Shown here piece by piece: positions 9,201-33,531 of a DNA stretch of 64,000 nucleotides. The stretch is from a virus, in IMG/VR virus record IMGVR_UViG_3300046468_002660; one strand, 5' to 3'. Below the pieces are notes generated by a model, which was not told where the DNA came from, did not search any database, and worked only from the letters and a program-made list of their open reading frames with translations. The position numbers and the translations under genes are program-made. How positions within the stretch are numbered: the stretch's first letter is position 1; each line of letters opens with the position of its first letter.

Positions 9201-9497
9201 ATGTGGAATTATAGAATAATTAAAGACGAAAATAATTATGGTCTTTACGAAGTTATGTATAATGACGATGGAGAAATATTCGCTCATAGCGAAAAACCCG
9301 AAATTGTTGGCGAAAACCCAAAAGATTTACTTGATACTTTAGAATTAATGATTCACGATGTAAATAAACACATTATTGATGGTAAAGAAATATTAGAAAT
9401 AGATAAAATAAAATTCGCAAAACCATGCGAAGATTATGATAAAAGTGAAGCTATAACTTATGAAGAGTTAAAAAAAATGCTTGACAAGTTAGAATAG
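9201..9497 (+). CDS. Hypothetical phage protein
   Basis: MWNYRII...YEVMYNDDG. Confidence 0.6.
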   Translation: MWNYRIIKDENNYGLYEVMYNDDGEIFAHSEKPEIVGENPKDLLDTLELMIHDVNKHIIDGKEILEIDKIKFAKPCEDYDKSEAITYEELKKMLDKLE

Positions 9498-9750: not shown

Positions 9751-10041
9751 ATGAATAAACACGAAGAAGCACAAAAAATAGATAGTTTGTTTGAAGTTGA
9801 AAGTGGATTAGACACTCGCCTTTTTGAGTTGGCGGGTTATCCTCTCATTGAAGACCTTGTAGAAAAAATGTTTCAATTAAAAGAAGAGATGAACAAGAGA
9901 CTTAATGACAGAGCAAAACTTTTAGGTATAGGTGGAGAGTTTGGTGTTGTTCCACCCGATACATCTCATTTAAATAATGATGATTTTGGTGCATTTATTA
10001 GAGGTGAAATAACGCAAGAGCAAGTGGAAGCAAAAAGATGA
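9751..10041 (+). CDS. Hypothetical protein
   Basis: Leaderless after TTGACA(9716)-N17-TAAGGT. Confidence 0.65.
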   Translation: MNKHEEAQKIDSLFEVESGLDTRLFELAGYPLIEDLVEKMFQLKEEMNKRLNDRAKLLGIGGEFGVVPPDTSHLNNDDFGAFIRGEITQEQVEAKR

Positions 10042-14086: not shown

Positions 14087-14161
14087 CGCATGGTAGCCAA
14101 GTGGTAAGGCAGGAGTCTGCAAAACTCCCATTCGTCAGTTCGATTCTGATCCATGCGTCCA
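14087..14161 (+). tRNA. trnC: tRNA-Cys (GCA)
   Basis: Acceptor CGCATGG/CCATGCG, D arm GCC-AAGTGGTAA-GGC, anticodon arm GGAGT-CTGCAAA-ACTCC, T arm GTCAG-TTCGATT-CTGAT, U73 and encoded CCA. Confidence 0.95.
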
Positions 14162-22781: not shown

Positions 22782-23060
22782 AATTTTGAGCATAGATCTC
22801 GCAAGCATTAAGTTGCTAAAAGCCAATTCTTGTAAGTCTCAATTCACTTTGGAAGGGCTTATAATCCTTCCTGTGGGTGACCGAATGAGCCTGTCGTGAG
22901 CGGGCTAAGGTATGCAGATCCCTGTGGTGGGGTTGGTAGAGTCCAATCGGATGAGCCAAATGACAACACCAAGTCTAGTCTGTAGTTGGAAGTAGGTACA
23001 CCATGAACTGATGTTCACGCCGAAAACTTGAGGGTATACAGTAGCCCCTCCCCACACAAT
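22782..23060 (+). ncRNA. Large structured non-coding RNA, family not recognised
   Basis: GC-rich, no convincing ORF, multiple helices (TGTGGG/CCCACA, GGAAGG/CCTTCC, AGCCTG..GTGA..CGGGCT, TGAAC/GTTCA, GAGGG/CCCTC), own promoter and terminator. Confidence 0.7.
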
Positions 23061-23418: not shown

Positions 23419-23652
23419 CAAACATTATTAACCAAAAAACATATGGAACCATTGCTAATATTAACATTGGCGATTACACTAGGAATAAAATTATTAGTAG
23501 AGGAAGTAATATAATAATATACAGTATAATATATAACAAATAATAAAAATAAAAATTTAATCAAAATGGACTAGTATAAATAATAAATAATCAAAATAAA
23601 TAATAAAAAAATTTTAAATAAATAAATAATTTGATTATGATTACCTCCTTGG

Positions 23653-23680
23653 CCCCCACCGTAATTGGTGGGGGTTTTTT
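23653..23680 (+). terminator. Intrinsic terminator
   Basis: CCCCCACC-GTAATT-GGTGGGGG-TTTTTT. Confidence 0.8.
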
Positions 23681-23702
23681 ATTGGTCAACTTTACGCTTT
23701 TG

Positions 23703-23774
23703 TAAGTCTTTGTTTATCAAGCACTTCTGAGATCGGCTGCCGCGCTAGCTAAGTCTTTGATATTCAATGAATTA
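23703..23774 (+). repeat. Dyad element copy 1 of 9
   Basis: TAAGTCTTTGTTTATCAAGCACTTC-N7-GGCTGCC-N8-TAAGTCTTTGATATTCAATGAATTA. Confidence 0.9.
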
Positions 23775-23836
23775 AAAAACTCAAATTAATTCACTTTTTT
23801 CTTGTGTTAAATTGTTTTTTATGCGATACTATGTAT

Positions 23837-23953
23837 ATGAAAGCGAGAGACATAAAGATCAGAAAACCAATTGTCTTCACTAAGTCAAGACCTCACAAGG
23901 TCAAGATTAAAACAATCCACAGAAAACTAAAACACAAGGAATTATTAGCATGA
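23837..23953 (+). CDS. 38-aa highly basic peptide (not in ORF track)
   Basis: MKARDIKIRKPIVFTKSRPHKVKIKTIHRKLKHKELLA; leaderless after TTGTGT-N17-GATACT; ATGA overlap with next gene. Confidence 0.6.
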   Translation: MKARDIKIRKPIVFTKSRPHKVKIKTIHRKLKHKELLA

Positions 23954-24177
23954 ATATTAACGAAGATTATTTAAGTTCAGATTGCCCAAACGCAGATGAA
24001 GTAATGACTCAAGGCATGGGTTGGATTTGGAAACATTTCATTGAACCTAACGCAGATCAAATTACAGAAGAACAAGCAGAAATGCTTACAATGATTGGGA
24101 TCAGTTTTAAAATGGTCGCAGAACAAGCAGATGCTTACGATCAAACTTTTGAAGAAAGCCCATATTTAAACAATTAA
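23950..24177 (+). CDS. Acidic hypothetical protein
   Basis: AAGGA SD. Confidence 0.6.
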   Translation: MNINEDYLSSDCPNADEVMTQGMGWIWKHFIEPNADQITEEQAEMLTMIGISFKMVAEQADAYDQTFEESPYLNN

Positions 24178-24215
24178 CTCTTGACAAAAAACATTATAAC
24201 TATTATATTACTATC

Positions 24216-25088
24216 ATGAATACAGAAGAAAACACCAATATCGCTCCTCGCAAATCCGTTAACTTGCACATTTGCGGAGGTAATCGTACAATCGTAGACT
24301 TTGACGAAGTTCAAGCTGTACCAACTCCAATGCCTACAATGCGTACAAAACCAAACAAAAGAACAGGGGAATTTGCCATTTCTCACCAACCAATTGCTCA
24401 TGAAGCTCTTGTAGTTCGCACTAAAGATTCTCTCACTAGCAGAGGTTTCACCATTCAAGATGAGCTACACTCTCTCGCTAGGGACAACCAACATTACTTT
24501 GGATTGTTCTCTGTAGATCATCCTGATCGTGATCCATCAGATCGTGGGTGCGTTGTAGGGGTTCGTAATTCTCACGACAAAACTTTTCCTGCGGGACTTT
24601 GTGCAGGTGATGCACCATTTGTTTGCGATAATTTAATTTTTACAAACACCATAAAACTTGCTCGCAGACATACTCGCAACATTATGAACGATCTCGATTT
24701 TATGATCAATCGTGCTTTGGGTAAATTGTTTGGCTTTTGGCATGGGCAAGATGAGAGAGTAAAGGCTTATCAAGATCGCTCTGTTGGCAATGTTCTAGCT
24801 CACGATCTTATCATAAAAGCAGTTCGTGCAGGTGCTTTACCAAAATCAAAAATTCTTGATGTTGCAGATCAATGGGAATCAAGCGATCATGTTGAATTCA
24901 AAGATCGCAATATAAATTCTCTCTACAACGCTTTCACAGAGATTTACAAAGGTAACTTGGTTGCCTTGCCAAATCGTTCAGACGCTCTTCATTCTGTTCT
25001 TGATAGTTATGTTGACTTCAATATTGATAACCATGTTGAAAATACTATTGACATGGAAGTCGTAGAGGGCGAATTGGTAGAAGTTTAA
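24216..25088 (+). CDS. DUF932-family protein
   Basis: RNSHDKT...AG...FVCDNL...RRHT...LYNAFTE; leaderless after TTGACA(24181)-N17-TATATT. Confidence 0.75.
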   Translation: MNTEENTNIAPRKSVNLHICGGNRTIVDFDEVQAVPTPMPTMRTKPNKRTGEFAISHQPIAHEALVVRTKDSLTSRGFTIQDELHSLARDNQHYFGLFSVDHPDRDPSDRGCVVGVRNSHDKTFPAGLCAGDAPFVCDNLIFTNTIKLARRHTRNIMNDLDFMINRALGKLFGFWHGQDERVKAYQDRSVGNVLAHDLIIKAVRAGALPKSKILDVADQWESSDHVEFKDRNINSLYNAFTEIYKGNLVALPNRSDALHSVLDSYVDFNIDNHVENTIDMEVVEGELVEV

Positions 25089-25110
25089 ATATTGGTTTGT
25101 CGTTTCGTTG

Positions 25111-25139
25111 ACTCCCCCCAAATGGGGGGAGTTTTTTTA
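25111..25139 (+). terminator. Intrinsic terminator
   Basis: ACTCCCCCC-AAAT-GGGGGGAGT then T run. Confidence 0.8.
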
Positions 25140-25159
25140 TGCCCAAAATTACTAAAGCG

Positions 25160-25231
25160 CAAGTCCTTGTTTATCAAGCACTTATGAGCGCGGCAGCCGA
25201 ATGATATAAGTATTTGATTGACAAGCGTTTA
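25160..25231 (+). repeat. Dyad element copy 2
   Basis: CAAGTCCTTGTTTATCAAGCACTTA-N7-GGCAGCC-N8-TAAGTATTTGATTGACAAGCGTTTA. Confidence 0.9.
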
Positions 25232-25293
25232 AAAATTTAAAATTATTTAACTTTTTTCTTGCAGTAATTATAAAAATGGCTTAGTATGTTTAC

Positions 25294-25707
25294 ATGATAC
25301 TGAGAAACCAACAAGACCCACGATATAGAATCAAAAAGAATCGTCCCGTATATGTTTACAAGAATCTTCATAAAGATTGTTGGAGCATCAAGCAACATGG
25401 TTTAGTTAAAGCTCACATCCCAAAGGATCATGCTATTGGATTATGGGATTGCTATTTTCATGTCGATGCCAAAGGCAGAGAAAAAGTTCTTCGTGAGAAG
25501 CGTAAGAATGTTCATGCTTTTGTTAAGGGTTATCTTCAGGATGCAGAAAATGTATCTTGCAATCCCCAAGTTATCAGCAGGGAAGTCGAGGTAACATATA
25601 ACCCCTACAAGTATGAGACTTTTGTAGAGAAGGAAACCGAAAAGTTTGCATACTATGCAGACGAAGTATTATTAACACACAACAAAGTAACCGCTTATAT
25701 ATCATGA
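25294..25707 (+). CDS. Conserved phage protein of unknown function
   Basis: VYVYKNLHK.CWS...GRE.VLREKRKNVHAFV.G...YNPYK pattern. Confidence 0.7.
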   Translation: MILRNQQDPRYRIKKNRPVYVYKNLHKDCWSIKQHGLVKAHIPKDHAIGLWDCYFHVDAKGREKVLREKRKNVHAFVKGYLQDAENVSCNPQVISREVEVTYNPYKYETFVEKETEKFAYYADEVLLTHNKVTAYIS

Positions 25708-25886
25708 ATTACACAGACGAAAATATTACGGAAGTAGCACAAAAAATTGTAGAAGATATGGATCTTGATGATCTTATAAGTTATGTCTATGATGACCTTG
25801 TAGCTCTTTTTGAAAAAGATGAAGAATTGTTTAATGCCAATTGGGATTGTTTGGATATGGACACATACCTTGAAAAGGAAAAGTAA
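25704..25886 (+). CDS. Small acidic protein
   Basis: ATGA overlap. Confidence 0.55.
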   Translation: MNYTDENITEVAQKIVEDMDLDDLISYVYDDLVALFEKDEELFNANWDCLDMDTYLEKEK

Positions 25887-25887
25887 A

Positions 25888-26091
25888 ATGAAAGAAGAAT
25901 TATACTCAATTAAAACCGCCATTGACGGACTTAGCGATGAGATACTAGAACATCGCAGACACGCAAACATGGAGGATCTCGTCAAGGTAATGAAGAACAT
26001 TAACGATAACCTTGTTGCAATTAGTTTTGACTTAAAAGATTTAGTTGAAGCAAAAAAATTCGAAAACGAGTTGAAAACTGCACTCAGATAG
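25888..26091 (+). CDS. Hypothetical protein
   Basis: AAGGA SD; stop 1 nt before repeat copy 3. Confidence 0.55.
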   Translation: MKEELYSIKTAIDGLSDEILEHRRHANMEDLVKVMKNINDNLVAISFDLKDLVEAKKFENELKTALR

Positions 26092-26092
26092 G

Positions 26093-26164
26093 TAAATCCT
26101 TTATAGTCAATCACTTAGGTGGCTGGCTGCCGCGCTAGCTAAGTGCTTAACATTCAACGATTTA
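26093..26164 (+). repeat. Dyad element copy 3
   Basis: TAAATCCTTTATAGTCAATCACTTA-N7-GGCTGCC-N8-TAAGTGCTTAACATTCAACGATTTA. Confidence 0.9.
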
Positions 26165-26225
26165 CAAAAGCATTTTTATTTAGTTTTTATTTGACAGAAA
26201 CTAAAAATTGCCTTAGTTTTATGTT

Positions 26226-26402
26226 ATGCAAGAAACAATAGATATGACACCAAAATGGACAGCAGTCGTTAGAATATTAACTGAAGTGCTTATGAGCCCA
26301 AAAGCAGGACACGCGGATAAATGCAATGCTGTAACTGAATTACTAAACCTCGCAAAGATTGTAGACGATCAAAACGAAAGGATAAAAAATGACACAAAGT
26401 GA
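26226..26402 (+). CDS. 58-aa hypothetical protein (not in ORF track)
   Basis: MQETIDMTPKW...; leaderless after TTGACA(26191)-N17-TAGTTT. Confidence 0.6.
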   Translation: MQETIDMTPKWTAVVRILTEVLMSPKAGHADKCNAVTELLNLAKIVDDQNERIKNDTK

Positions 26403-26613
26403 AATTAGAATAATGATATTAAACATCGTTAACGGAAACATTCGCTATGCGAATCCCGCAGATCCAATGAATGTCAAGAAAGCTGAAGACTTGGGTATTG
26501 ATTACTTCACTACTCAATCAGCGGAAGAAGTCTTAGATGATATCATTACAGACTTGACAAGCTTGCAAGATGAGCTTAGGATAGAATCATCTTTTCAATC
26601 AGCACAACTATAA
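26389..26613 (+). CDS. Hypothetical protein
   Basis: AAGGA SD. Confidence 0.55.
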   Translation: MTQSEIRIMILNIVNGNIRYANPADPMNVKKAEDLGIDYFTTQSAEEVLDDIITDLTSLQDELRIESSFQSAQL

Positions 26614-26635
26614 CACACAGGACACAAGGAGAAAA

Positions 26636-27628
26636 ATGACAACTATAGCACAATTACAAACCAAAAAAAGAAAAAGCAAGAAAACTACTTCTTTGCAAGT
26701 TAACCAAAGCAAAGTTACCGCAGAAAAACAATTCAACAAAATTTTTAAACAAAAAGAGTTTAAGCATTTTATCTACGATTTTGGTGTCAAAGATTTACCT
26801 TTGCTCGATCATATGCTATCCGATCAAGTAAACAATCCCTCAAGAAATCGTGGCAAAGCAGATGACAACATCAAGAGATTATTTCGTTGTCTTCAAGCGG
26901 GTCAATGGTTTTTCGAGTCAATCGACATTCTCATCAATGAAAGAGGCGAGCTTCTTAATGGTCAACATACATTGGAGGCTATTAACCAACACCTTCTTGA
27001 CGCAAAAACACCAAGAGATGCTGTAGTGAAAGTTGGCTTCAAGTTAGGAGTTGATTCAAGAGCAATGCCTTATCTCGACACTCAAAAGAAAAGAAGTCCA
27101 CATCAAAATCTTAGAATTAAACAAGGTGGTGTGGATATTAAACTTAATCGAGCACAAGAGTATATTGTATTAACTGAAGGTAAAAATTTAGTACATGGTT
27201 CTCCTTTCGCTAAAGGTAAGATCGTAAACTTTTTTGAATACGATAGCGTTATTAAAAAGCATTCTAGTATGTTAAACAGAGTGTTTGGTAATCGAGTATT
27301 CTGCTCAGACTTTCCTCATATTGGCATCAGTTACCCTTTGTTCTGTGTTGCCAAAGAAGATGAAGAGCTTGCAAACACTATTCTTGATGAGATTTGCGAC
27401 ATTCATAACGAAAGCAATCGAGGAGTCTCAAAATGGTATCCTTATGAGAAACAAATTCCTGTAGAGCACGAATTGATAGAAAAGTTTAGACAAGAAAAAC
27501 ATCTCAAAATGTCAGGAATGACAAGCAAGACGGGCAGAGATTGTTATCGTGCCGAAGAGTTTTATCCATTAGCAGTTAATTGGTTAGTTGAGAAGTGCGA
27601 TCTTGATCGCAACATTTTTCCAAAATGA
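26636..27628 (+). CDS. ParB/Srx-like (DGQHR-type) domain protein
   Basis: SRNR...GQW...ILINERGELLNGQHTLEAI resembles the DGQHRL.AI motif. Confidence 0.55.
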   Translation: MTTIAQLQTKKRKSKKTTSLQVNQSKVTAEKQFNKIFKQKEFKHFIYDFGVKDLPLLDHMLSDQVNNPSRNRGKADDNIKRLFRCLQAGQWFFESIDILINERGELLNGQHTLEAINQHLLDAKTPRDAVVKVGFKLGVDSRAMPYLDTQKKRSPHQNLRIKQGGVDIKLNRAQEYIVLTEGKNLVHGSPFAKGKIVNFFEYDSVIKKHSSMLNRVFGNRVFCSDFPHIGISYPLFCVAKEDEELANTILDEICDIHNESNRGVSKWYPYEKQIPVEHELIEKFRQEKHLKMSGMTSKTGRDCYRAEEFYPLAVNWLVEKCDLDRNIFPK

Positions 27629-27954
27629 ATTATTACATAAAACAAGCAAACTCACTCGAAATGGCTTTTTACATTGGTAAAACCAGGAAAAACCCCTTCA
27701 CCCAAAGGGGTAATCCTACCAACAAGACAATCTGTCAATGGATCAAAGATTATGGTGAAATTGCATGGACAACACTTATGGTTATACCCGAATACGCATT
27801 GCACAATGAATACGGAGAAACTTATCTCATAAATTGTTTCAAAGAAAAATTTAGCAATTTAAAATTATTGAATGTAGCCACGCCACATTCGGGAGCAATT
27901 AATTACGATAAAAAATCTGAGTTAATTATTGACAAACTCAAGAAAATGCTTTAG
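27625..27954 (+). CDS. GIY-YIG-like nuclease domain protein
   Basis: NYYI...FYIGKT...R...E..LI...LLN spacing. Confidence 0.5.
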   Translation: MNYYIKQANSLEMAFYIGKTRKNPFTQRGNPTNKTICQWIKDYGEIAWTTLMVIPEYALHNEYGETYLINCFKEKFSNLKLLNVATPHSGAINYDKKSELIIDKLKKML

Positions 27955-27985
27955 TGTTTAACTAAATCACAACGAAAGGAAAATC

Positions 27986-28201
27986 ATGACAACAGTATTA
28001 GACAAACCCGAACAAATCGAAATGTTTCGCTACAAAACTCTTCTTAGAGGCTTAAAACTTGAGACGCTAGGAATGCAAATGAGTAGAGGCAGATCTTGCT
28101 ACTCTATCGTCAAACAAGAGTTTGGACTTAAAGGTAGCAAACAAAAAGTTTTCGATCAATTTAAACTTATGTTAGAACAAGTAGACGAAAGGGCACTATA
28201 A
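27986..28201 (+). CDS. Hypothetical protein
   Basis: Promoter near 27929, AAGGA SD. Confidence 0.6.
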   Translation: MTTVLDKPEQIEMFRYKTLLRGLKLETLGMQMSRGRSCYSIVKQEFGLKGSKQKVFDQFKLMLEQVDERAL

Positions 28202-28413
28202 TGACAGCATCACAAGTAGAAGCGAGAGTAGAGAGTTGGAATTGGAACATGAATGTCTTTGAGATATATGACGAACTCAGAGACGGGCACACAGCGAAAC
28301 AACAAGAGGATTTACTTTCTTTTGCCTATCGTTACTTTAACAAAGATAAAATGATTTTAGAGCTTGCCAATCACTTTGGAATCTATAACATAGAGGATAA
28401 TGAAAATGAATAA
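28201..28413 (+). CDS. Hypothetical protein
   Basis: TAATG overlap. Confidence 0.55.
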   Translation: MTASQVEARVESWNWNMNVFEIYDELRDGHTAKQQEDLLSFAYRYFNKDKMILELANHFGIYNIEDNENE

Positions 28414-28639
28414 TTACATTGAAGCAACCTGCATCGGTAGTCCACTAGGTTTACCTGAGTACAACGAAGAAACTGAACAATACGAAGTTTTCTTCGAAGA
28501 AAATTACGACGAGTTTAACCCGTACTTTGAGAGAGATATTATTTCTTATAGTTGCGAAGACGCTGAGGAAGCGACTGAGATCTACAACTATTACAACCAA
28601 AATCCCGTACAAGAAGAACATGAAGAAATTGTTTCTTAA
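28400..28639 (+). CDS. Very acidic hypothetical protein
   Basis: E/Y rich. Confidence 0.55.
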   Translation: MKMNNYIEATCIGSPLGLPEYNEETEQYEVFFEENYDEFNPYFERDIISYSCEDAEEATEIYNYYNQNPVQEEHEEIVS

Positions 28640-28853
28640 AATACTCCGTTGGTTTACTCCGATATATCAAATAGTATATCACACCAAAGACGGCAGAACA
28701 GAAATGTACACAATCACCCCGCCAAAACATGAAAATGAATTTGGCAACAAGCAAGAAGGCAAGTCAGTCGTTGGCTTCAGGTCCTTCTGCCTAAATCGTG
28801 GTGGTATTCGTTCATTTCGCTACAATCAAATAATCTCATTAAACAAAATTTAA
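28620..28853 (+). CDS. Stand-alone WYL-like domain protein
   Basis: IVYHTKDG...ITP...FCLNRGGIRSFRYNQIISL resembles WYL I.Y...G...P...C..R...R.FR..RI. Confidence 0.5.
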   Translation: MKKLFLKILRWFTPIYQIVYHTKDGRTEMYTITPPKHENEFGNKQEGKSVVGFRSFCLNRGGIRSFRYNQIISLNKI

Positions 28854-28855
28854 TC

Positions 28856-29017
28856 ATGAAGAAAAAAGTTAAAAATAAAGATTCACTACAAGATAGCTTA
28901 AGAAGATTCGGGCACATGCTCGCAATACGAGAGCGACGCGGGGACACATCCGAAGAGTACAAACAAAAACAAGCTCTTCACGAATCGATGTTAAGAAAGC
29001 TTTATAATCGAGCGTAA
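28856..29017 (+). CDS. 53-aa basic protein (not in ORF track)
   Basis: Its TAA stop is the first 3 nt of repeat copy 4. Confidence 0.55.
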   Translation: MKKKVKNKDSLQDSLRRFGHMLAIRERRGDTSEEYKQKQALHESMLRKLYNRA

Positions 29018-29086
29018 GTCCTTTATATTCAGTCACTTAGGTGGCTGGCTGCCGCGCGGCATAAGTGCTTGATATTCAATGAGTTA
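29015..29086 (+). repeat. Dyad element copy 4
   Basis: TAAGTCCTTTATATTCAGTCACTTA-N7-GGCTGCC-N8-TAAGTGCTTGATATTCAATGAGTTA. Confidence 0.9.
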
Positions 29087-29148
29087 AAAATGTTATTTTA
29101 ATTCACTTTTTTCTTGCGTCTGGTAGTCTTTTTTGCGATAGTGTAACC

Positions 29149-29355
29149 ATGCAAAGAATAGTAAAAATCCTAATGGAGCGTGACGGACTTTCCCTCGAAG
29201 ACGCTACTCACCAAACCGCAACTTTTTTTAGAGAAATGTCTGAAGACATCGCAATGGGTGGTGACCCTTTCGAGTGGGAGCATTCGTTCACTAGCGAGTT
29301 TTCTCTAGAGCCAGATTTTTTTGAAGATCTTATTTTTTCGCTTGCAATTGCATAA
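29149..29355 (+). CDS. Small acidic protein
   Basis: Leaderless after TTGCGT-N17-GATAGT. Confidence 0.6.
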   Translation: MQRIVKILMERDGLSLEDATHQTATFFREMSEDIAMGGDPFEWEHSFTSEFSLEPDFFEDLIFSLAIA

Positions 29356-29376
29356 AAATTTGTTTAGTTTTATATC

Positions 29377-30102
29377 ATGAATCTATTATCAAATCCTTCT
29401 AAAATGCCTTGTTTAGGCTTTAACATTCCCGCTTTCAAGTATTGCCCCGCAGCTCAACTTATGGCAAAAGTCAAAGACAAAGCAAAAAAGTTTATTTGTG
29501 ATGCTTGTTATGCTTGCAAAGGTTTTTATATGTTTGCCAATGTCAAACAAAGCTTGCAAGACAAAGCAAATTTTGTTACCAAGTCTTTACATCAAGACAA
29601 TGGGCAATCTTTTGTAAATGAGATGTCAAAGCAAATTACTAAAAAGTATTTTGACAAGCAAGGCAACAAAAAAGTTTTAAAGAATGTCAACACAGATCTT
29701 TTTCGCGTTCATGATTCAGGAGATCTTTTTTCCCCAAAGTATATCGAGGCATGGATTAAGATTTGCGAAAATTTTCCTTCAATTCGCTTTTGGTTTCCAA
29801 CTCGTGAGTGGGCAAGAGATAGTCAATTGCCTTCACTTCGCAAGCTTGCAAGTTTAAAGAATGTTTGTTTAAAACCAAGTGCTTTATATGTAGACGAACC
29901 CGCTCCACAAATCGATGGTCTAGATGCGGGAACTTCCGTCTATAGCTCAAAAGAGAAAGCCGAGCAAGATGGTCATTTTGTTTGCCCCGCAACTTATGTT
30001 AAGGGCGAAGACGGCAAGATTTTAGCAACTTGTAACGCTCATAATTGCAACTTATGCTTTATCAAGGGATGCAAAAAAGGTATTGCATATTTAGCTCATT
30101 AA
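29377..30102 (+). CDS. Gp88-like Cys-rich (probably Fe-S) protein
   Basis: SKMPC, CP...C..CYA.KG.Y, FRVHDSGD, FW.PTRE, C-terminal Cys cluster. Confidence 0.7.
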   Translation: MNLLSNPSKMPCLGFNIPAFKYCPAAQLMAKVKDKAKKFICDACYACKGFYMFANVKQSLQDKANFVTKSLHQDNGQSFVNEMSKQITKKYFDKQGNKKVLKNVNTDLFRVHDSGDLFSPKYIEAWIKICENFPSIRFWFPTREWARDSQLPSLRKLASLKNVCLKPSALYVDEPAPQIDGLDAGTSVYSSKEKAEQDGHFVCPATYVKGEDGKILATCNAHNCNLCFIKGCKKGIAYLAH

Positions 30103-30117
30103 CCTATAATTAAAGCC

Positions 30118-30297
30118 ATGAATGAAGAAACTTATTTTGACTCAGCCCAAGGAATTGACATTTCACAAGATCGTGCTTTGCAAGAATTAGCAAGGCACGA
30201 CATTACTTCAAGTGAAGAAATTATTGAATTCTTTGAAGACATGGGTGACAAGGAAGGATACTCAGCCCAAAAAGTTCTTGAGTGGTTAGGCTACTAA
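30118..30297 (+). CDS. 59-aa acidic protein (not in ORF track)
   Basis: MNEETYFDSA...WLGY; TAA stop is the start of repeat copy 5. Confidence 0.6.
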   Translation: MNEETYFDSAQGIDISQDRALQELARHDITSSEEIIEFFEDMGDKEGYSAQKVLEWLGY

Positions 30298-30366
30298 AGC
30301 CTTGACCATCAAGCACTTAGGGGCGCGGCAGCCGCCCAAGCTAACTGCCTGTTAGTCAACGACTTG
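30295..30366 (+). repeat. Dyad element copy 5
   Basis: TAAAGCCTTGACCATCAAGCACTTA-N7-GGCAGCC-N8-TAACTGCCTGTTAGTCAACGACTTG. Confidence 0.9.
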
Positions 30367-30428
30367 CGCAAGCATTTTTATTTAACTTTTTTCTTGCGTT
30401 AATTGTAAAAAGAGTTTAATGTGTTTAT

Positions 30429-30824
30429 ATGATTAACTACGACATACCAGACTCAATCTCACAATTCAACCCACAACCTTCTATGCTAGATTTTGACGAT
30501 TTAGATTTTCAACCACATCGTGGTGCTGATGATGCAGTCCAAGCAAGACTTGACTTTGGCAACGGGCTAGAAATTTCTGTTGTTGCAGGTAATGACGATA
30601 GAAGAGGATTATATGGTAGTGTGAAAGAAGATTTATACGAAGTTGCAATCTTTGATAAAAACGGCATGATTCCACTTTCTCCTTCTGACGATGTTGTCGG
30701 ATGGCAATCTCCCGCCCAAGTATCTATCTTAATGGCAAAAGCTCAAGTCGAAGGAAGTGTTTGGGTTGACGAGCTAATCGAAGACAAAGCAGAATTTAGA
30801 AGAGATTTAGGACTTGACGACTAA
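30429..30824 (+). CDS. Hypothetical phage protein
   Basis: FGNGLEISVV...YG...LYEVAI; leaderless start. Confidence 0.65.
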   Translation: MINYDIPDSISQFNPQPSMLDFDDLDFQPHRGADDAVQARLDFGNGLEISVVAGNDDRRGLYGSVKEDLYEVAIFDKNGMIPLSPSDDVVGWQSPAQVSILMAKAQVEGSVWVDELIEDKAEFRRDLGLDD

Positions 30825-30848
30825 ACCAAATTAAACTATATTATTACT

Positions 30849-31112
30849 ATGACAGAAGAACAAAGAATATCAATTATCCGACACGCTCACCAAAATTCTC
30901 AAAAGATTTGTCCTCCAAAATCTATTCAAGAGTTTATTGGTGATATTTTAGTCGAACAATTAGTAACCGAGCATGGTTTGCTTGATACTCAAAAAGAAGA
31001 TCTAGCAGACGAGTCTCAATTTCTCTTCACTGATTCAGCAGAAAACATTGATGAGGAAGACGAACAATTCGGAATATCCGATGAAATGAAAGGAATATAT
31101 CATGATAGTTGA
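30849..31112 (+). CDS. Acidic hypothetical protein
   Basis: Leaderless after TTGACG(30814)-N17-TATATT. Confidence 0.6.
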   Translation: MTEEQRISIIRHAHQNSQKICPPKSIQEFIGDILVEQLVTEHGLLDTQKEDLADESQFLFTDSAENIDEEDEQFGISDEMKGIYHDS

Positions 31113-31294
31113 ATTATTATTTTTCACTCCTTGGCTTTTTGTTTTCTACTTAATGTGGCAAGATTTAAAAGAGGAATGATGCCATTAATAATAATTATGG
31201 CAATTTTATTATTTTTTTATATATCAGATTAAATAGGGCAAATATCAAATAAACTTTTAGTAGTAGTTAGGTTGTCTGGATTAGTCCCCCGCTC

Positions 31295-31366
31295 TAAGTT
31301 GCTGATTATCAAGCACTTAGGGTGGGCGGCTGCCGCGATCATAAGTGCTTAACATTCAACGACTTA
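31295..31366 (+). repeat. Dyad element copy 6
   Basis: TAAGTTGCTGATTATCAAGCACTTA-N8-GGCTGCC-N7-TAAGTGCTTAACATTCAACGACTTA. Confidence 0.9.
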
Positions 31367-31427
31367 CGAAAGCATTTTTATTCATTTTTTTCTTGTGTAT
31401 TTTTATTTTTTCGCTTAGTCTGTATGT

Positions 31428-31634
31428 ATGAAACATTCAGAGAGCGGAACCAAAAAGATATTAAAGCAGTTACGGAAATGTCCCGATATTAAAGACATCC
31501 GTGCCACGGCAAAAGGTCACATGATCCTTGCTCAAAATGGGGAGCAATTACTTGTGCATTTTAGTGCCAAAGCTTTTCATCCATTGCGTAGGTGGTTAAA
31601 AAGAAACACTTCGCTAAAAGCGTTAAAATTTTAG
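31428..31634 (+). CDS. Small basic protein, possibly HicA-like
   Basis: Helix, then AKGH, beta strands, VH, helix; 68 aa. Confidence 0.4.
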   Translation: MKHSESGTKKILKQLRKCPDIKDIRATAKGHMILAQNGEQLLVHFSAKAFHPLRRWLKRNTSLKALKF

Positions 31635-31676
31635 TTTTAGCTTGCAATTATTTTAAATTTAGTTTACTTTACTATT

Positions 31677-31862
31677 ATGGAAACATTAAAAGACTTACTT
31701 AACAGAATTAACGAACTTCAGGAAATCATCGACAGGGAGACCCCTGACGCAGACGCAGGATGCGATTGGTCAAAGTCTCTCGTTATTAACGCTGAGGTAG
31801 AAAAGGATCAAGTCCAAGACATGATCGACAAATTAGCTATTAACTCTCAACTTGTTTATTAA
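31677..31862 (+). CDS. Hypothetical protein
   Basis: Leaderless after TTGCAA-N17-TACTTT. Confidence 0.55.
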   Translation: METLKDLLNRINELQEIIDRETPDADAGCDWSKSLVINAEVEKDQVQDMIDKLAINSQLVY

Positions 31863-31864
31863 TT

Positions 31865-32086
31865 ATGGATACTTACAACGGCTGGAAAAACTGGGCGACC
31901 TGGAATGTTGCTCTTTGGTTAGGGAATGACGAATATCTTTACAAACTTTCTCGTAGATTTGTTCATTACAAAGATCTTGCAAATACGCTAATAGAAATGG
32001 GTAGCCCTTGTACGCCTGACGGGGCAAGGTATGCAGACGAAGACTTAGATACCTACGCCCTCGATGAATGGTTGCAAGAAGAGTAA
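31865..32086 (+). CDS. Conserved small phage protein
   Basis: YNGWKNWATWNVALWLGNDE.LY; TAA stop is the start of repeat copy 7. Confidence 0.65.
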   Translation: MDTYNGWKNWATWNVALWLGNDEYLYKLSRRFVHYKDLANTLIEMGSPCTPDGARYADEDLDTYALDEWLQEE

Positions 32087-32154
32087 GTCGTTGATTACCA
32101 AGCACTTAGGTGCTTGGCAGCCGCGCTCGTAAGAGCTTGGCTATCAGTGATTTA
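32084..32154. repeat. Dyad element copy 7, at the convergence point of + and - genes
   Basis: TAAGTCGTTGATTACCAAGCACTTA-N7-GGCAGCC-N7-TAAGAGCTTGGCTATCAGTGATTTA. Confidence 0.9.
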
Positions 32155-32163
32155 TGAATCGTT

Positions 32164-32412
32164 TTATTCGGTTAGCATTTCTACTTTTACTGCATTGTTT
32201 GCAATGTTGTTAATTTCGGTCATCCATTTATCAACATTTTCATTGAACACTTTTCCATCGCCTGAAATGTTTTCTGCAACTGTGTTTTTAATGGCTCTTG
32301 CTTGAGCCGCAATGTCCAAGAGTGCTCTTGACAAGTTGTAAGCTTGATGATTTTTGTATGAATCGTTTTCTATTAAGTCAACGATTGAGATGGTGTCTTT
32401 ATTAGCTGTCAT
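32164..32412 (-). CDS. Hypothetical protein
   Basis: Leaderless ATG 32412 after TTGCAA-N17-TACATT on the minus strand. Confidence 0.6.
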   Translation of the reverse strand: MTANKDTISIVDLIENDSYKNHQAYNLSRALLDIAAQARAIKNTVAENISGDGKVFNENVDKWMTEINNIANNAVKVEMLTE

Positions 32413-32578
32413 AAACACAATGTAAACTAGCGGTGCGTGTTTTGCAAGCAAATACGGATTTATTTTCACTTTTTTTTCGTTTTTTTATTTAGTTGCAAAT
32501 AGCCTAATAGTGCAACTTTATAGGAGTAGCAGGATTGTACAACTTTATAGTTGGCACACTTCCTGAACACCCGTTCTG

Positions 32579-32649
32579 TAAGTCGTTGTTTAGCAAGCTG
32601 TTACGAGAGCGGCAGCCGCCGCCCTAAGTGCTTGGTTATCAGTCACTTA
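32579..32649 (-). repeat. Dyad element copy 8 (inverted)
   Basis: TAAGTCGTTGTTTAGCAAGCTGTTA-N7-GGCAGCC-N7-TAAGTGCTTGGTTATCAGTCACTTA. Confidence 0.9.
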
Positions 32650-32660
32650 GGAGGCTAAGT

Positions 32661-32759
32661 TTAGCGATGTGCTAAACCTTCCAATTGTGCTATTTGTTTG
32701 TCCAATTCTATTTGAATGGCTTCTATATCCGAAGCTTTCTTTTTATTGTTCAATTTCAT
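32661..32759 (-). CDS. 32-aa peptide (not in ORF track)
   Basis: MKLNNKKKASDIEAIQIELDKQIAQLEGLAHR; AAGGG SD-like sequence. Confidence 0.4.
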   Translation of the reverse strand: MKLNNKKKASDIEAIQIELDKQIAQLEGLAHR

Positions 32760-32833
32760 AGCTTTTACCCTTTCGTTATTTAAAGCCATGATTTGTATTT
32801 TAAGTTTATTTATTGTATTTTTTATGTATTCCA

Positions 32834-33148
32834 TTATACTAGCTCCTCCTCTGCTAAAACTTTGATTCTATCCTCGAAGCATTCGTCAATTTCAGAATCG
32901 CTTTCAATGAAGTCTTCTATTTCTTTATTTGTGAAGGTTAAACTTGTTGGCTTGTCATTATCATCTAATTGCTCAACTTTAAGAACTCTTGCGTTTGTGA
33001 AGATGTCCCACTCGTCAAAGTCATGTTCTATTTTAGCTTGAACTAAGAGTGTTCCAAAGTCTCCGAAGAGAACGATGTCGAATGTTCCACCATGTATGCC
33101 GTTCGAGTCTACGCTCTCGGCACTTTCGAATTGTAATGTCTTTGTCAT
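32834..33148 (-). CDS. Acidic hypothetical protein
   Basis: Near-leaderless ATG 33148 after TTGCGT-N17-TACTAT. Confidence 0.6.
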   Translation of the reverse strand: MTKTLQFESAESVDSNGIHGGTFDIVLFGDFGTLLVQAKIEHDFDEWDIFTNARVLKVEQLDDNDKPTSLTFTNKEIEDFIESDSEIDECFEDRIKVLAEEELV

Positions 33149-33222
33149 ATAACTACATAGTAAACCACAAAACAAAAGAACGCAAGAAAAAAGCGATTTA
33201 TTTTGCATTTATTTTACTTTCG

Positions 33223-33293
33223 TAAGTCGTTGTTTAGCAAGCTGTTACGAGAGCGGCAGCCGCCTCCCTAAGTGCTTGGTGGTCAGTCACTTA
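33223..33293 (-). repeat. Dyad element copy 9 (inverted, near-identical to copy 8)
   Basis: TAAGTCGTTGTTTAGCAAGCTGTTA-N7-GGCAGCC-N7-TAAGTGCTTGGTGGTCAGTCACTTA. Confidence 0.9.
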
Positions 33294-33351
33294 GGAGGCT
33301 AGTATTAAAGGCTATGTAAGAAGAGGGCTAGAGATAGACAAGCGATCAAGA

Positions 33352-33531
33352 TCATATAGCCTCCTTGTATTGCTTGCCGTTTTTGACGATTGCCAAGTGA
33401 GGATTTTTTCTTTTTATTTGTTTTGCAATCTCCATAGCTTTAGCTTGTGAAGTTGCGTTGTCAACTAGCTTTCCAAAGACTCGAATGTCAATCCAATTGG
33501 AAAAGTTTTGGTTCTTTAGTATTGAGATCAT
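33352..33531 (-). CDS. 59-aa hypothetical protein (not in ORF track)
   Basis: MISILKNQNFSNWIDIRVFG...; leaderless after TTGACA-N17-TACAAT. Confidence 0.6.
   Translation of the reverse strand: MISILKNQNFSNWIDIRVFGKLVDNATSQAKAMEIAKQIKRKNPHLAIVKNGKQYKEAI

Follow-up and report, generated by a model that had tools for sequence, protein, structure and literature searches.

An array of small genes in the virus record IMGVR_UViG_3300046468_002660 is divided into cassettes by nine copies of a 71–72 bp double-palindrome element. On balance we favour the view that this element is a regulatory module for early promoters which doubles as a recombination substrate, in the manner of the promoter-early stem-loop (PeSL) cassettes of T4-type phages, and that it represents a new kind of element. 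The stretch of DNA analysed, called the window here, is 64,000 nucleotides long and comes from a large phage that encodes a helicase, rIIA, rIIB, PhoH, a sigma factor, a terminase, a portal protein and a tape measure protein of more than 3093 amino acids. No near-identical DNA was found among cultured phages and the best matches of the terminase, to Bacillus phages, are about 26% identical; the phage has no close cultured relative. IMG/VR contains many uncultured relatives of about 200 kb. The function of nearly all of the cassette genes is unknown.

A repeat search of the window recovered the nine copies at the starts given in the original prediction (Table 1). As had also been predicted, no element lies outside 23.7–33.3 kb, and a profile hidden Markov model (HMM) built from the nine copies and searched across the window returned nothing beyond them. 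The half-box pattern TAAGTNNTTGNNNNNCAANNACTTA, allowing up to 3 mismatches, has 20 matches in the window against 0.95 expected. Eighteen of these form nine pairs inside 23703–33293, the remaining two (21616 and 41874) are isolated and carry 3 mismatches each. The same confinement is seen in a CheckV-complete 206-kb relative, where all box matches fall within a 9-kb stretch at 25.2–34.3 kb and a control pattern gives 0.

Each element consists of two 25-bp boxes (P-boxes P1 and P2) flanking a GC-rich spacer, and every copy is an intergenic doublet of inverted palindromes. Taken over 126 distinct copies from some 20 genomes, the consensus reads TAAgTcnTTGatnatCAAgcACTTA, a GC-rich spacer of 21–22 nt, then TAAgtgcTTGataatCAAcgAcTTA; it begins with TAAGT, ends with ACTTA and has 16 invariant positions. 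The element can be described as four similar half-sites of 10–12 bp (TAAGTnnTTGAT / ATCAAnnACTTA) which alternate in orientation around a GC palindrome, and its two box centres are separated by 46–47 bp, or about 4.5 helical turns. The motif GGCWGCC occurs 11 times in the window (1.0 expected), nine times within the elements at offset 32–33. This centred core, proposed at the outset to be invariant, is indeed present in all nine copies but its invariance is limited to this clade: the relatives have GCCWGGC, GGCSGCC or other or shorter GC-rich cores between unchanged boxes. The first TAA of copies 4, 5 and 7 is the stop codon of the preceding open reading frame (ORF), and the stop ahead of copy 3 is 1 nt away, in agreement with the first description of the sequence; across the 126 copies the stop codon abuts or overlaps a box in 29. 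Copies 8 and 9 are inverted, as are their genes, with profile scores on the minus strand of 65.6 (against 41.9) and 63.9 (against 40.8), and the genes on either side of copy 7 converge.

The identity of copies 8 and 9, 96% over 80 nt, exceeds that of any other pair by far and points to a recent duplication or gene conversion. In general the likeness of copies within a genome is only slightly above that between genomes. A close relative, L050 (IMGVR_UViG_3300024581_003792; rIIB 96% identical over the first 268 residues), contains the same module at 9953, 11600, 12814 and 14090, with the GC core GCCWGGC in place of GGCWGCC and a more degenerate second box.

Cassette shuffling at the elements is strongly supported by the comparison of gene order among relatives, the test that the original prediction had set for itself. 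About 20 uncultured relatives carry 7–11 element copies between rIIB and phoH. The genes of the window were compared with the merged relatives using tblastn. The flanks rIIA-rIIB-b0 and b9-phoH-sigma are collinear in all relatives compared, and the blocks between the elements are permuted and have also been gained or lost, with breakpoints in the elements. The order 1-2-3-4-5-6 of the window becomes 3-2-1-4-5-x-6 in 3300049222_000632, 3-1-4-2-5-6 in 3300046170_000519 (IMGVR_UViG_3300046170_000519), 2-3-1-4-5 in many other relatives and 2-3-1-6-5-4 in others. Cassette 6 is flipped between its two elements in 3300004460_000008. The gene pair b3c-b3d, which lies within cassette 3 in the window, forms an element-bounded cassette of its own in 3300024346_000243, and the gap between b5b and b6a, which holds one element in the window, holds two around a 245-bp mini-cassette in 3300049222_000632. 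Elements are kept at orthologous junctions in phages whose rIIB proteins are only 57–96% identical.

Five related contigs (L047, L051, L054, L093 and L097) contain the same cassette genes in a single order (2-3-1-4-5) and have only 0–1 recognisable boxes. They form a tight clade, with rIIB 84–100% identical, and the contrast between element-poor and element-rich genomes is only suggestive.

The elements at rearranged junctions are chimeras of a left and a right part, in which the left box goes with the upstream cassette and the promoter with the downstream one. The junction b2c|b5a at L023:5082 matches window copy 3 on its left side (upstream sequence 52/60, P1 25/25, left spacer and core 16/16) and window copy 5 on its right side (AT tract and promoter 60/63, coding sequence 71/80). 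In a linkage analysis of 50 pairs with only the upstream cassette in common and 103 pairs with only the downstream cassette in common, excess identity to the upstream partner extends through P1 and the left spacer and ends at the core. With the downstream partner, no excess is seen in P2 and little in the AT tract; it becomes strong only once the promoter spacer is reached. P2 of window copy 2 tracks the downstream cassette (23/25 against 16/25), that of copy 3 tracks the upstream cassette (23/25 against 16/25). This difference implies that crossovers occur at two positions or more; a zone of about 40–100 bp is linked to neither side.

The element is also attached to promoters at a fixed distance. 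The ends of copies 1–6 lie 26–27 bp before a -35-like TTGnnn, which is followed by 17 bp, TAnnnT, 6 nt and an ATG, and the tract between element and promoter is A/T-rich. Copy 9 has the same layout on the minus strand with a distance of 37 bp, one extra helical turn. Among the relatives the distance from element to -35 box is 26–28 bp in 43 of the 64 strictly defined promoter-bearing copies. Counted from the ATG as +1, the two boxes are centred at about -75 and -122, with the core at about -99. The sequence TTGACA is found in 5/72 element-linked promoters and in 78/168 element-free leaderless promoters of the same regions (Fisher 4e-10, for copies that are not phylogenetically independent); the dominant -35 boxes of the element-linked promoters are TTGCTA, TTGTGT and TTGCGT. 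The element-linked promoters thus form a separate class with weak -35 boxes. An activator site, named in the original prediction as an alternative to a recombination site, gains support from the 26–27 bp phasing to this class.

In the window there are 30 matches to the pattern TTGnnn-N17-TAnnnT-N5-7-ATG, compared with 7.4 +/- 2.4 expected. The position of the -10 box 6 nt before the ATG suggests that the early messenger RNAs are probably leaderless or nearly so, which as judged from this geometry would be general in this phage. Promoters of the consensus form TTGACA-N17-TAnnnT, with an ATG 5–7 nt past the -10 box, are found between 3100 and 34000 of the window, examples are those at 9481, 9716, 10198, 12895, 14543, 15805, 23129, 24181, 33816(-) and 33565(-). 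A sigma54 -24/-12 reading of the conserved T-tract/TTGC motif was rejected by eye, there being no GG at the right spacing and an ATG 6 nt past the -10-like box. The 131-nt insert between copy 8 and its promoter contains a direct repeat, CTATAAAGTTG(T/C)AC, which occurs twice at 32510–32565 (-).

Several observations bear on whether DNA or RNA is the selected form of the element. Among 38 pairs of opposed positions tested in the arms of the 126 distinct copies, 35 show no covariation of variable positions; weak covariation is seen at three inner-arm pairs, 20-53, 21-52 and 22-51 (z +2.9 to +5.5). Copies 1 and 2, like several copies in relatives, are separated from the preceding gene by an intrinsic terminator. 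The lack of covariation, the invariant bases and the terminators ahead of the element together indicate that the double-stranded DNA sequence is the selected feature, and this points to a protein-binding DNA site and not an RNA hairpin.

Table 1. Elements, associated promoters and terminators in the array, in positions of the window.
Feature	Position	Strand	Remarks
Terminator before copy 1	23651..23686	+	Canonical intrinsic terminator, 11-bp GC stem and T run, just before the copy
Element copy 1	23703..23774	+	P1 box, GC core with GGCTGCC, P2 box; profile score 64.8
AT-rich tract and promoter, copy 1	23775..23839	+	TTGTGT-N17-GATACT, 6 nt, ATG (23837)
Terminator before copy 2	25110..25143	+	Canonical intrinsic terminator, just before the copy
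Element copy 2	25160..25231	+	Found by repeat, half-box and profile searches
AT-rich tract and promoter, copy 2	25232..25296	+	TTGCAG-N17-TAGTAT, 6 nt, ATG
Element copy 3	26093..26164	+	Stop of preceding ORF at 26091
AT-rich tract and promoter, copy 3	26165..26228	+	TTGACA-N17-TAGTTT, 6 nt, ATG
Element copy 4	29015..29086	+	First TAA is the stop of ORF 28856-29017
AT-rich tract and promoter, copy 4	29087..29151	+	TTGCGT-N17-GATAGT, 6 nt, ATG
Element copy 5	30295..30366	+	First TAA is the stop of ORF 30118-30297
AT-rich tract and promoter, copy 5	30367..30431	+	TTGCGT-N17-TAATGT, 6 nt, ATG
Element copy 6	31295..31366	+	
AT-rich tract and promoter, copy 6	31367..31430	+	TTGTGT-N17-TAGTCT, 6 nt, ATG
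Element copy 7	32084..32154	.	Convergence point of + and - genes; promoterless; first TAA is the stop of ORF 31865-32086
Element copy 8	32579..32649	-	Next minus-strand promoter 131 nt off
AT-rich tract and promoter, copy 9	33146..33222	-	TTGCGT-N17-TACTAT, 8 nt, ATG (33148)
Element copy 9	33223..33293	-	96% identical to copy 8; -35 box 37 nt downstream on minus strand

Element, AT-rich tract and sigma70-like promoter together form an intergenic module of about 135 bp which heads each early-gene cassette between rIIB and phoH. We propose that a dimeric or tetrameric factor, of phage or host origin, binds the boxes at about -75 and -122 and controls the weak promoters, most likely by activating them; the bound module may also insulate the cassettes from read-through. 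The 7–11 nearly symmetric copies would supply homology in both orientations, and this near-perfect dyad symmetry can explain inversion. Whole self-expressing cassettes could then be excised, reinserted, flipped and swapped by template switching or by general recombination between copies, a RecA-like protein being encoded in the phage family.

Some features fit this proposal less well. Copy 7 is promoterless and 131 nt separate copy 8 from its promoter, so that the element is not always joined to one. Shared descent of a duplicated module, and not shared regulation, could account for the similar -35 boxes. A box spacing of 4.5 turns puts two dimers on opposite faces of the helix, which is awkward for a simple tetramer. 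Searches of the small proteins of the cassettes and their flanks against Pfam, PHROGs and Atlas found no DNA-binding family and with it no binding protein encoded nearby, and no HU/IHF homologue (PF00216) was found in the phage relatives. The exact tracts common to present-day copies at the mapped crossovers are 5–10 bp, which is little for classical homologous recombination, and a search for RecA in G001, the closest of the complete relatives, found none.

The closest known parallel to the regulatory and recombining module proposed here is that of the PeSLs (Arbiol et al. 2010, PMC2839356; Comeau et al. 2014, PMC4122927). In both cases a repeated composite intergenic module combines an AT-rich tract with a sigma70-like early promoter, each cassette has its own expression signals, and the modules punctuate a hyperplastic region, made up of small genes whose function is unknown, in which indels, replacements and reorderings between relatives end in the module. 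PeSL cassettes also form mini-circles when neighbouring modules recombine. Recombination between repeated PeSL modules has been shown experimentally in T4-type phages (PMC2839356). There is, however, no relationship of sequence or lineage, the phage studied here being one of about 200 kb that encodes a giant tape measure protein. Where the PeSL has its GC stem-loop terminator, this phage has a 71-bp element whose four conserved half-sites show no hairpin covariation, and a separate terminator sometimes precedes this element. The starts also look leaderless here, unlike those of the PeSL cassettes. The PeSL idea would thereby reach beyond T4-type phages, with a different boundary element. The comparison offers a view at nucleotide resolution of how widespread uncultured marine phages of about 200 kb may rearrange early, probably host-takeover, genes as self-expressing cassettes, and from the constant distance to a separate class of weak promoters one would predict a new regulator and early genes that form a second temporal class.

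The original prediction preferred site-specific recombination, by analogy with integron cassettes. There are real likenesses to integrons: discrete cassettes are bounded by imperfect palindromes that abut stop codons, their order varies among relatives, and the insertion of a cassette makes two sites of one. An exchange system of this sort would employ an unrecognised phage or host recombinase acting on the paired boxes, with strand exchange in or next to the core, and the link to promoters would be secondary. The inverted boxes around a symmetric core resemble recombinase core sites, the stop codons that meet a box fit this idea, several chimeras switch within the core or right spacer, and a lineage-specific core is expected if it co-evolves with an enzyme. 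Nevertheless no Phage_integrase (PF00589), Resolvase or Y1_Tnp (PF01797) was found in three CheckV-complete relatives, nor was a PF00589 tyrosine recombinase found in the array of the window, so that the IntI integrase of integrons has no counterpart in these sequences. The crossovers fall at no fewer than two places (the core or right spacer, and the boundary of P2 and AT tract) and not at the single point typical of integrons, and family-wide linkage decays gradually over about 100 bp with no single step. Each cassette has its own promoter, unlike the promoterless cassettes of integrons, and a recombination site alone does not explain why this promoter is at a fixed phase. We found no evidence that the element acts as a folded single-strand substrate, a feature of attC sites. 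Given the absence of recombinases, the spread of crossovers and the presence of a promoter on each cassette, site-specific recombination is not supported, and we judge a dedicated integron-like exchange unlikely. A RecA-like gene is present in two of the three complete relatives; because recombinases are absent, this gene is present and the crossovers are spread, general or microhomology-driven recombination between repeated modules is favoured over an integron-type mechanism.

A bolder version of this idea, which we likewise regard as improbable, is that the array is a viral cassette-exchange platform for host-takeover genes, an analogue of the integron, in which the P-box and the lineage-specific core are read by a recombination or cleavage factor of a new type. 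Self-expressing cassettes would on this account move between positions and between co-infecting phages, and the P-box would be a repeat of host type.

The P-box is indeed found in bacteria. The exact box TAAGTNNTTGATNATCAANNACTTA, which has 20 specified bases, occurs in more than 120 bacterial genome stretches, with at most a few expected in 596 Gb. The genomes that carry it are mostly Bacteroidota (Microscillaceae, Saprospiraceae, Cytophagales, Chitinophagaceae and marine single-cell genomes), and the box is also found in WOR-3/Hydrothermia and Verrucomicrobia. The bacterial box is intergenic in 124 of 125 cases. A role as the operator of a conserved bacterial regulon was rejected, as no neighbouring gene recurs among these 125 cases. 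The unspecified centre of the box is A/T in 122 of 124 copies and no hairpin covariation was seen in its arms. A 6.8-Mb Microscillaceae metagenome-assembled genome (MAG; G008) contains 1741 copies with at most 2 mismatches, compared with 1 for a control pattern, and includes some doublets of box, GC-hairpin and box. A phylum-wide host-factor site was also rejected, since the box was present in just 4 of the 401 genomes sampled from that phylum. The bacterial box behaves like a sporadically amplified repeat of the repetitive extragenic palindromic (REP) type. We know of no description of this bacterial 25-bp repeat family. We take it as a clue to the binding factor, and possibly the host as well, not as evidence of function; the link between a phage regulatory or recombination site and a family of bacterial intergenic repeats may help to find both.

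It follows that the phage element itself might be a REP-like repeat, related to REP doublets forming hairpins (REPINs) or bacterial interspersed mosaic elements (BIMEs), that is a host-type element which entered the phage or was copied by it. It would then be semi-selfish or a site for a nucleoid protein or gyrase, with shuffling as a by-product. The phage element has the layout of a REPIN, two inverted palindromes of 20–40 bp with a short spacer in extragenic DNA (PMC3337134), and the same box is a high-copy intergenic repeat without a recurrent neighbour gene in some bacterial genomes. In the phage, however, the element is restricted to 9 kb of a 206-kb genome, phased to promoters and kept at orthologous junctions despite the divergence of rIIB. 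The GTAG/CGTC tag that marks the two REP superfamilies (PMC3733652) is missing from the box. The phage relatives are without a REP-associated tyrosine transposase (RAYT) or Y1 gene, and the three Y1 transposase genes of the box-rich Microscillaceae MAG have no flanking boxes. The scarcity of the box within the phylum also argues against this explanation, which we consider quite unlikely.

Among the bacterial loci L124–L243, the box lies within a longer repeat resembling miniature inverted-repeat transposable elements (MITE-like) in WOR-3 and Hydrothermia MAGs. In many Bacteroidota the box is single and it sometimes caps a terminator hairpin that follows a tRNA gene. By eye, the half-site W-ATCAA-nnAC-TTA is compatible with the Escherichia coli integration host factor (IHF) consensus, WATCAANNNNTTR, and we treat this as a lead only. 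A search of the literature for the core TTGATWATCAA returned only the streptococcal FabT operator, which is unrelated.

An element acting at the RNA level, by which each cassette transcript would end in a long imperfect hairpin serving as terminator, RNase III site or stabiliser, is very improbable: the whole 71 bp is an imperfect palindrome, some copies fold well (copy 7, z = -5.5; copy 6, z = -3.9), three inner-arm pairs weakly covary and PeSLs hold a terminator stem-loop at the equivalent position (PMC2839356), but the folds are inconsistent from copy to copy (z -0.25 to -5.5) with 4 of 9 no better than shuffles, the element is followed by an A-rich tract and not by a T run, the terminators before copies 1 and 2 and before copies in relatives place the element in untranscribed DNA there, most arm positions do not covary while specific bases are invariant, and an Rfam search of the elements matched no family. 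The folds, the separate terminators and the general lack of covariation led us to reject a hairpin or terminator identity for the element.

Other phages have repeated sites that recall the regulatory side of the module. The stoperators of mycobacteriophage L5 and the repeated palindromes near promoters of Cluster O phages are many intergenic protein-binding sites, some of which overlap stop codons, and they are tied to transcription control. They differ from the element described here in sequence, size and symmetry and, to our knowledge, have not been reported as junctions of cassette shuffling.

The following observations concern the remainder of the window. The giant ORF was considered as an N4-like virion RNA polymerase acting on hairpin promoters, this was ruled out and the ORF is a tape measure protein (PF10145). 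The sequence GGCC is rare in the whole window, with 12 occurrences against 38.5 +/- 5.9 expected, and GATC, GCWGC and CCWGG are not under-represented; the scarcity of GGCC suggests avoidance of a HaeIII-type restriction site. The element core as an avoided restriction or methylation site was rejected, as GCWGC is not depleted (65 against 60 expected). A manA RNA (Rfam RF01745, 82.6 bits, E 4e-20) is found at 22851–23060 (+), free-standing between small genes just upstream of the array, and a tRNA-Cys (GCA) gene lies at 14087–14161 (+) inside the early region. A hydrophobic micro-ORF of 16 codons, MILIACLSLALFLHSL, is located at 33305–33355 (-) and ends just before copy 9; it has a good AGGAGG ribosome-binding site and an ATGA overlap with the stop of the preceding gene.

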